Source: Escherichia coli
GTDB taxonomy: Bacteria > Pseudomonadota > Gammaproteobacteria > Enterobacterales > Enterobacteriaceae
DNA: 64,000 bases
Reading direction: 5' to 3' (one strand)
NCBI RefSeq assembly: GCF_003334405.1
Contig: NZ_QOWM01000003.1
Shown piece by piece: positions 15,068 through 24,053 of this stretch. The position numbers were made by a program, and so were the translations under genes. Within the stretch, counting starts at the first letter, position 1; each line of letters opens with the position of its first letter. Below the pieces are notes generated by a model. It saw only the letters and a list, made by a program, of their open reading frames with translations. It was not told where the DNA came from and searched no databases.

Positions 15068-15230
15068 GGTCCAGCCAGAAGAGTAAGAGAAAGCACTATT
15101 TTACGCGTTACAGTGCTGCGACAATGGCCGGAAAAGACGCCTGGCAGGCGCTATTTCTTGCCATCTGTAGGTGTCAGAAATAGGGGGCTGTTTTTTGATT
15201 ATCATTTTTATAACATTAAAGGGGTATTTA

Positions 15231-15246
15231 TGTGATTTGCATCACA
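15231..15246. promoter_or_regulatory. CRP binding site upstream of azuC
   Basis: Perfect palindromic TGTGA-TTTGCA-TCACA; a second CRP-like site TGTGA-N6-TCATA at 15261-15276. Confidence 0.65.
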
Positions 15247-15328
15247 TAAAGATTGATTTTTGTGATGGTTGTCATATTATAAGCGCAAAGACAATAACAC
15301 CTGTATAACAAATAGTCGGAGTGCCGCG

Positions 15329-15415
15329 ATGAAACTGCGCAAAATCCTGAAAAGTATGTTCAATAACTATTGCAAGACGTTCAAAGACGTACCGCCAGGC
15401 AATATGTTCCGATAA
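15329..15415 (+). CDS. azuC: small protein AzuC (28 aa)
   Basis: ATG with RBS GGAG; translation MKLRKILKSMFNNYCKTFKDVPPGNMFR; too short for the ORF track. Confidence 0.8.
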   Translation: MKLRKILKSMFNNYCKTFKDVPPGNMFR

Positions 15416-15444
15416 CAAAAAACCTGCTCCGGCAGGTTTTTTTG
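15416..15444 (+). terminator. rho-independent terminator of azuC
   Basis: ACCTGC-TCCG-GCAGGT hairpin followed by TTTTTTT. Confidence 0.75.
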
Positions 15445-15529
15445 TGTCCTGATGACGGTGGATGTGACTATCGCTGAAGATGTGAAGCCGCTACTATAAC
15501 GGCTTTCAAAATGCTATCAGGAGTTTACG

Positions 15530-15781
15530 ATGTCCCAGCCGCTGAATGCCGATCAGGAACTGGTTTCTGATGTGGTTGCTTGCCAGTTGGTTATCAAACA
15601 AATTCTGGATGTTCTCGATGTAATCGCGCCCGTTGAAGTTCGTGAAAAAATGTCCAGTCAGCTGAAGAATATCGACTTTACTAACCATCCCGCCGCCGCA
15701 GACCCGGTCACCATGCGGGCAATCCAAAAAGCCATCGCGCTTATTGAACTCAAGTTTACCCCACAGGGTGAATCCCATTAA
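15530..15781 (+). CDS. yecJ: DUF2766 protein YecJ (83 aa)
   Basis: Translation [24 protein letters not shown]... matches YecJ; RBS AGGAG upstream. Confidence 0.85.
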
Positions 15782-24037: not shown

Positions 24038-24053
24038 TGTGATCTGCATCACG
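24038..24053. promoter_or_regulatory. CRP binding site of the flhDC class-1 promoter
   Basis: TGTGA-TCTGCA-TCACG, 9/10 to the CRP consensus; centred about 71 bp upstream of the inferred TSS. Confidence 0.6.

Follow-up and report, generated by a model that had tools for sequence, protein, structure and literature searches.

The dual-function RNA AzuCR of Escherichia coli has its closest described counterparts in Spot 42 (spf)/SpfP and SgrS/SgrT of E. coli and in VcdRP of Vibrio cholerae. Spot 42, like AzuCR, is a CRP-repressed, glucose-induced small RNA (sRNA) of carbon metabolism that pairs with mRNAs and also encodes a very small protein. The two RNAs are unrelated in sequence, and SpfP, at 15 amino acids (aa), acts on CRP; Spot 42 pairing is moreover Hfq-dependent, whereas AzuR, the base-pairing activity of AzuCR, represses cadA and galE without Hfq and is reported to need ProQ for this repression (review, PMC12612679). 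SgrS/SgrT resembles AzuCR in being a dual-function RNA with a part in enteric sugar metabolism, but it is activated by SgrR where AzuCR is repressed by CRP, and it keeps coding and pairing regions apart, whereas those of AzuCR overlap. VcdRP is again unrelated in sequence to AzuCR and is longer (306 nt), and it differs in its targets, with a protein that acts on citrate synthase and an sRNA part directed at PTS transporter mRNAs.

AzuCR itself, formerly named IS092/IsrB, has been described in E. coli K-12 as a 164-nt RNA with its coding sequence (CDS) at +40 to +126 (Raina 2022, PMC8915982). The same study detected SPA-tagged AzuC, reported ribosome profiling that supports translation, and found the protein, identical to the one encoded here, to be associated with the membrane, to bind GlpD and to raise dehydrogenase activity. 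At the RNA level, AzuCR uses a region inside the open reading frame (ORF) to base pair with cadA and galE and so represses them, as confirmed by compensatory mutations; translation and base pairing compete, and FnrS pairs 25–31 nt upstream from the azuC ORF and blocks its translation (PMC8915982).

The region that we analysed lies in a 64-kb stretch of E. coli DNA (64,000 nucleotides, taken as a whole and called the window below) and is almost certainly E. coli azuCR (isrB/IS092), a dual-function RNA gene with a CRP-repressed sigma-70 promoter. The original prediction had placed a 28-codon azuC with tandem CRP sites and its own terminator at 15231–15444, a span that proved to run from the first base of the upstream CRP site to one base past the T-run of the terminator, and its naming of the gene held up: the protein matched the NCBIfam equivalog profile NF033642 (75.9 bits, E = 1.3e-21, with the cut-off at 30) over residues 2–27, the full 26 positions of the model, the locus differed from K-12 azuC (b4663)/azuR (b4434) by 2 SNPs over ~290 aligned bases, and the RefSeq label is azuC. 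One of these SNPs (15240, C here and T in K-12) falls inside the N6 spacer of the upstream CRP site and the other (15314, A here and G in K-12) in the 5' UTR upstream of the Shine-Dalgarno (SD) sequence, leaving the CRP half-sites, the SD and the CDS free of both. The N6 spacer of a CRP site consists of non-contacted bases, and no functional difference is expected from the two SNPs. K-12 azuCR (Hemm 2008 and 2010; Raina 2022) has the same context as the present locus, an identical 28-aa protein, and a matching promoter, SD, terminator and pair of CRP sites.

The gene order on the E. coli chromosome is tyrP-yecH-ftnA-yecR-azuC-yecJ-ftnB-araF, and 5420 of the 5426 complete E. coli genomes matched a 421-bp query, with 95–100% identity. 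K-12 MG1655 is annotated with both azuC (b4663, CDS) and azuR (b4434, ncRNA, 1987843–1988001), and the annotation "azuC: stress response protein AzuC" stood in ten of the ten records among the matches listed, out of the 5420 genomes with the locus. The remark that such a gene is easily missed by automated annotation is therefore out of date, as those ten records show and as the existence of an NCBIfam equivalog and a Pfam label confirms. Publication and annotation already cover the gene and its translation, CRP control and the two predicted CRP sites, and the base-pairing function; GlpD binding, pairing with cadA and galE, and repression by FnrS, FNR, NarP and PhoP are likewise published. The locus thus represents the correct recognition of a known, well-characterised gene and no discovery, and its residual value lies in a corrected sign of CRP control, in a conserved cassette with an exact 30-bp operator spacing, and in the identity of a published FNR motif with the upstream CRP site.

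Transcription on the plus strand is annotated to start at the A at 15287, which is the K-12 transcription start site (TSS) 1988001 (annotation, PMC8915982) mapped through the K-12 alignment. A promoter scan, independent of this mapped start and consistent with it, found a sigma-70 promoter composed of a −35 hexamer TTGATT (15253–15258, plus strand), a 16-nt spacer and a −10 hexamer TATTAT (15275–15280, plus strand) that ends 7 nt before the annotated TSS. Two predicted CRP operators bracket the −35 hexamer. Site 1 (TGTGATTTGCATCACA, 15231–15246; −56 to −41, centre −48.5) lies just upstream of it and has no mismatches to TGTGA-N6-TCACA; site 2 (TGTGATGGTTGTCATA, 15261–15276; −26 to −11, centre −18.5) has one mismatch and covers the promoter spacer together with the first 2 nt of the −10 hexamer. 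Site 2 stands exactly 30 bp downstream of site 1, as had been predicted for a second near-consensus site. The description of site 1 as a perfect CRP palindrome was right for its half-sites, which are perfect, and for its surroundings, a perfect inverted repeat at 15227–15250 with 10-nt arms (TTTATGTGAT/ATCACATAAA), but the 16-mer is not a full palindrome because its centre, TTGC, is asymmetric.

We found one perfect TGTGA-N6-TCACA in the 64-kb window against 0.02 expected, and three CRP-type sites with at most one mismatch against 1.9 expected, a count that is not significant alone; what makes the CRP sites non-random is their pairing, position and conservation. The third of these sites (TGTGATCTGCATCACG, 24038–24053, one mismatch) belongs to another promoter, with the flhD start codon ~270 bp downstream of it, and its position fits the well-known CRP site at the flhDC promoter.

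We then assessed conservation with a DNA pattern back-translated from YCKTFKDVPP, which gave 85 loci among one-genome-per-species GTDB contigs; conservation was counted over 84 distinct full-length sequences. Because the search pattern lies inside the CDS, promoter conservation is unbiased by the way in which the loci were found. All 85 loci were in Enterobacteriaceae, spread over ~20 genera that include Escherichia, Citrobacter, Kluyvera, Kosakonia, Leclercia, Buttiauxella and Raoultella, with azuC also in the Klebsiella oxytoca group, Cedecea, Mangrovibacter, Phytobacter, Franconibacter, Siccibacter and Shimwellia. This exact-peptide pattern gave no Salmonella among the 80 titled loci and, since it demands the exact peptide, a species without a match may still carry the gene.

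Site 2 was present in every sequence (84/84), with the identical single mismatch TCATA in 81. The −10 hexamer read TATTAT in 81/84 and always overlapped site 2 by 2 nt, and the site 2 mismatch appears to be fixed because it coincides with the −12 T in the −10 hexamer and is thus apparently forced by the two shared bases. The −35 hexamer was TTGATT in 73/84, its TTG being present in 84/84. A CRP-type site exactly 30 bp upstream of site 2 was found with at most one mismatch in 68 of the 84 sequences and with at most two in 79, and the spacing of the two sites was unchanged throughout. Half-site columns were nearly invariant (for example G 84/84, G 84/84, A 84/84) and the N6 spacers varied freely, a combination of fixed half-sites and free spacers that is the signature of protein-contact constraint. 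Downstream, the terminator stem CCTGC/GCAGG with a T-run of at least six was kept in 83/84, with varying loops and no covariation. New here is that this cassette (−35, site 2, −10, terminator) hardly changes across 84 Enterobacteriaceae sequences and has a constant 30-bp spacing of the operators.

Five sequences, from Klebsiella oxytoca, K. grimontii and some Raoultella, carried a degenerate site 1 with at least three mismatches. Site 2, the −10 hexamer and the terminator were intact in all five, and the degeneracy of site 1 in these species suggests that site 2 may be the core operator.

Other regulators have been placed on the same DNA. Mapped from K-12 coordinates, the published repressor motifs of the isrB promoter (PMC12266141) fall at 15212–15228 for NarP, at 15225–15242 for PhoP and at 15230–15249 for FNR (K-12 1988039–1988058), and this last motif is the same DNA as CRP site 1. 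Mutation of the FNR motif and knockout of fnr both derepress isrB, and an FNR ChIP-seq signal near isrB has been cited (Ekdahl 2025, NAR, PMC12266141). Together with the degeneracy of site 1 in the Klebsiella oxytoca/Raoultella group, where site 2 persists, these observations would fit a site 1 that is mainly an FNR operator for anaerobic repression, with CRP acting only through site 2. We consider this arrangement unlikely. CRP and FNR sites are told apart by their discriminator bases, GTGA...TCAC for CRP and TTGA...TCAA for FNR, and site 1 has the CRP discriminators (G in 84/84 sequences, C in 80/84), with a perfect CRP consensus in the present locus. Mutation of the FNR motif would also destroy CRP site 1, so the published mutant does not separate CRP from FNR. 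The roles of the two regulators are not mutually exclusive, and FNR may still bind here, given the cited ChIP-seq signal and the effect of the fnr knockout. The coincidence of motif and site therefore matters for reading the mutant data of PMC12266141.

Site 1 could alternatively serve yecR, which is divergent here (ATG 15067, minus strand) and has site 1 ~170 bp upstream of its start codon, rather than azuC. This is very improbable, as outside Escherichia yecR lies 1.4–5.1 kb from azuC with other DNA between them, yet the 30-bp offset of site 1 from site 2 is kept.

CRP represses this promoter, a conclusion on which published expression data and site geometry agree. Glucose gives high levels of AzuC-SPA and AzuCR RNA, and glycerol or galactose gives low ones, owing to CRP-mediated repression, and AzuC-SPA is elevated in a crp deletion (PMC8915982); this is also the answer to the original prediction, which had named insensitivity of the transcript to crp deletion as the result that would speak against it. 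The CRP sites of azuCR are called "predicted" in the legend to Fig. 1A of that study (PMC8915982), and Raina 2022 and later papers give Hemm 2010 as the primary source for both the CRP regulation and the site predictions. An independent preprint finds isrB up in a crp mutant, and a 2025 review restates CRP repression and the functions of AzuCR (PMC12612679). RegulonDB already had isrB as a CRP target in 2011; the SELEX evidence is ambiguous, with isrB standing both among the found and among the not-found targets of a 2011 table, and IPOD-HR occupancy changes are reported mainly upstream of the CRP sites. As CRP represses azuCR, glucose induces it and the RNA is made in glucose. The catabolite control that had been predicted thus stands as CRP control (PMC8915982) and fails as glucose repression, since RNA and protein are high in glucose and up in the crp mutant.

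We judged it extremely unlikely that cAMP-CRP activates a small-protein-only gene here, such that glucose would repress it as it does a classical catabolic promoter. Two strong CRP-type sites do stand immediately upstream of the gene, and tandem CRP sites occur at activated class III promoters. The centre of a class I site, however, is at −61.5, −71.5 and so forth, and that of a class II site at −41.5; the centres found here, −18.5 and −48.5 from the annotated TSS, match neither class, and the positions are therefore not activating. Site 2 in addition overlaps the conserved −10 hexamer and, by its position, RNA polymerase contacts, and the published glucose and crp mutant data already refute activation. 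The base-pairing targets of the RNA count against the second half of this reading: the locus had been predicted to be a small-protein locus, which is correct in that it is protein-coding and incorrect if taken as small-protein-only, its transcript being a dual-function RNA that pairs with cadA and galE.

The azuC CDS occupies 15329–15415 on the plus strand (ATG at 15329, TAA to 15415) and encodes 28 aa followed by a stop (MKLRKILKSMFNNYCKTFKDVPPGNMFR). A Shine-Dalgarno GGAG at 15318–15321 (plus strand) stands 7 nt before the ATG, bearing out the predicted ribosome binding site, and is kept across the 84 sequences. The 28-codon ORF was, as had been remarked, not called on its own, the azuC frame being present in the ORF list only within a 48-aa TTG-start ORF at 15269–15415. 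The protein falls in the 25–28 aa size range of the AzuC family and contains its core MKLRKILKSMF..YCKTFKDVPP..MF, common to orthologues from ~20 genera. All 98 of 98 database homologues, found with the 48-aa upstream-extended query, were labelled PF28150.1 (a precomputed Pfam label); a Pfam-A profile search with the same extended peptide gave no match, one possible reason being that PF28150 was absent from the Pfam-A copy searched. Outside the ascertained codons, conservation was 1.74 and 1.70 bits at codon positions 1 and 2 versus 1.22 bits at position 3. Tagging and ribosome profiling, which had been proposed as checks on the protein, have both registered AzuC in published work (PMC8915982).

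Short ORFs are common by chance (29 of at least 20 aa in 1.7 kb) and the RNA was first described as the sRNA IS092/IsrB, but a chance ORF in a purely non-coding sRNA has next to no probability against a peptide almost invariant over ~20 genera, conservation with codon periodicity, a conserved SD, a curated NCBIfam equivalog (NF033642), and published SPA-tag detection, ribosome profiling, GlpD interaction and stop-codon mutant phenotypes.

Synonymous third positions were also more conserved in azuC than in the adjacent yecJ (1.30 versus 0.84 bits, Mann-Whitney p = 5e-5, compared over the same 52–62 genomes and subject to codon bias and phylogenetic non-independence), and azuC stood above yecJ in every degeneracy class. 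This excess fits an added RNA-level constraint such as AzuR function would impose.

The start of the ORF varied among genera. Where E. coli has its ATG, the aligned codon was CAG, CAA or CTG in eight sequences from Kluyvera and relatives, in three from Pseudocitrobacter, and in one each from Shimwellia and Mangrovibacter phragmitis. In the Kluyvera group and Pseudocitrobacter the first Met is at codon 3, giving a 25-aa AzuC (MRKILKSMF...), and Shimwellia and M. phragmitis have no in-frame ATG before codon 10; the promoter-to-ORF distance is correspondingly longer in these genera. At the other end, azuC of Enterobacter sp. EA-1 is frameshifted and reads 34 aa (...DVPPRALCSDDKKTC), with the left arm of the terminator inside the extended ORF; either a genuine lesion or a fault in the assembly could account for the frameshift. 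Antisense to azuC runs a 48-aa TTG-start ORF on the minus strand (15272–15418). A transcript c2317, annotated "antisense of azuC" in CFT073, is listed in a sigma-S in vitro run-off table in a 2011 paper, and we found no evidence that the antisense ORF at 15272–15418 is a gene.

The AzuCR (azuR, IsrB, IS092) transcript maps to 15287–15445 on the plus strand, with its 3' end after the U-tract, and the promoter and terminator features of a discrete ~160-nt RNA are present, seen here as sequence only. The K-12 annotation gives azuR 159 nt with the ORF at +43 to +129, a small numbering mismatch with the 164 nt and +40 to +126 of PMC8915982. A Rho-independent terminator at 15417–15443 (plus strand) consists of an A-tract, CCUGC, the loop UCCG, GCAGG and U7. 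Its arms (15417–15427 and 15432–15442) enclose a 4-nt loop and form an 11-bp stem in which A:U pairs extend a CCUGC/GCAGG core (5 bp, 4/5 of them G-C pairs), and the T-run occupies 15437–15443. Direct folding gave −18 kcal/mol (z = −5.7), upholding the predicted dedicated terminator. The azuC terminator went unreported in a consensus terminator scan, since its upstream A-tract is paired with the U-tract. We considered that the A-tract might make the terminator bidirectional and rejected this, as yecJ shares the strand and no convergent gene is adjacent. Over the whole transcript, the minimum free energy was weakly better than that of shuffled sequences (z = −2.1).

An Rfam scan of the region gave no matching family, and no AzuCR/IsrB family. 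Matches to STnc370 (minus strand), rsmX and DLEU2_4 were rejected, all being sub-threshold. STnc370, a Salmonella sRNA family, scored 33.4 bits against a gathering score of 54 at 15411–15475 on the minus strand, most strongly over the palindromic terminator hairpin, and both its alignment and that of rsmX were mainly to this hairpin.

Downstream of the terminator, yecJ (DUF2766, function unknown; 15530–15781) follows azuC directly on the same strand in ~69/85 species, and the yecR/ftnA side is variable across species. In most species only 50–92 nt separate the yecJ ATG from the terminator (15446–15529 here), and this interval contains a conserved box, C-CTACTA--AC (about 15486–15497), and a conserved AGGAG.

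We investigated base pairing with a windowed duplex scan, which replaced whole-length duplexfold after the latter gave meaningless full-length duplexes of AzuCR with cadA and galE. The scan placed the FnrS 5' end on CACCUGU at 15298–15304 (plus strand). We take the FnrS 5' end to be GCAGGUG, complementary to CACCUGU. This position in the 5' UTR, 25–31 nt upstream of the ORF, is the published pairing site (PMC8915982), and it lies in a 5'-UTR block conserved in the 84 sequences. For cadA, the best duplexes with AzuCR had −19.6 and −20.2 kcal/mol (values obtained without a length-matched null), and the predicted pairing region is 15367–15399 on the plus strand (AzuCR nt 81–113), inside the CDS and opposite cadA −15 to +19. 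This predicted duplex agrees with published pairing that lies inside the CDS and acts near the cadA ribosome binding site. Several candidate duplexes with AzuCR were found for galE in the same scan.

Taken with the published work, these features outline how the locus would operate. When glucose is absent, cAMP-CRP would sit on both predicted sites and shut the azuCR promoter, most likely by occluding RNA polymerase, as the geometry of the sites suggests. When the promoter is free, TTGATT/16 nt/TATTAT would direct initiation at 15287, and the RNA (159 nt as annotated) would end at the 15417–15443 terminator. From this RNA, AzuC would be made as the 28-aa amphipathic membrane protein published for K-12, which binds and stimulates GlpD; the AzuR sequences inside the ORF would, as published, pair with cadA and galE mRNAs and repress them; and FnrS, again as published, would pair with the 5' UTR and block AzuC translation.

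A further possibility, which we put forward tentatively and hold to be somewhat doubtful, is that the two CRP operators form a fixed clamp round the −35 hexamer for cooperative repression by two CRP dimers, with the upstream operator shared with the FNR motif. In that case a single hybrid operator would receive carbon (CRP) and oxygen (FNR) signals in competition or in alternation, and part of the phenotype published for the FNR-site mutant would be due to the CRP site.
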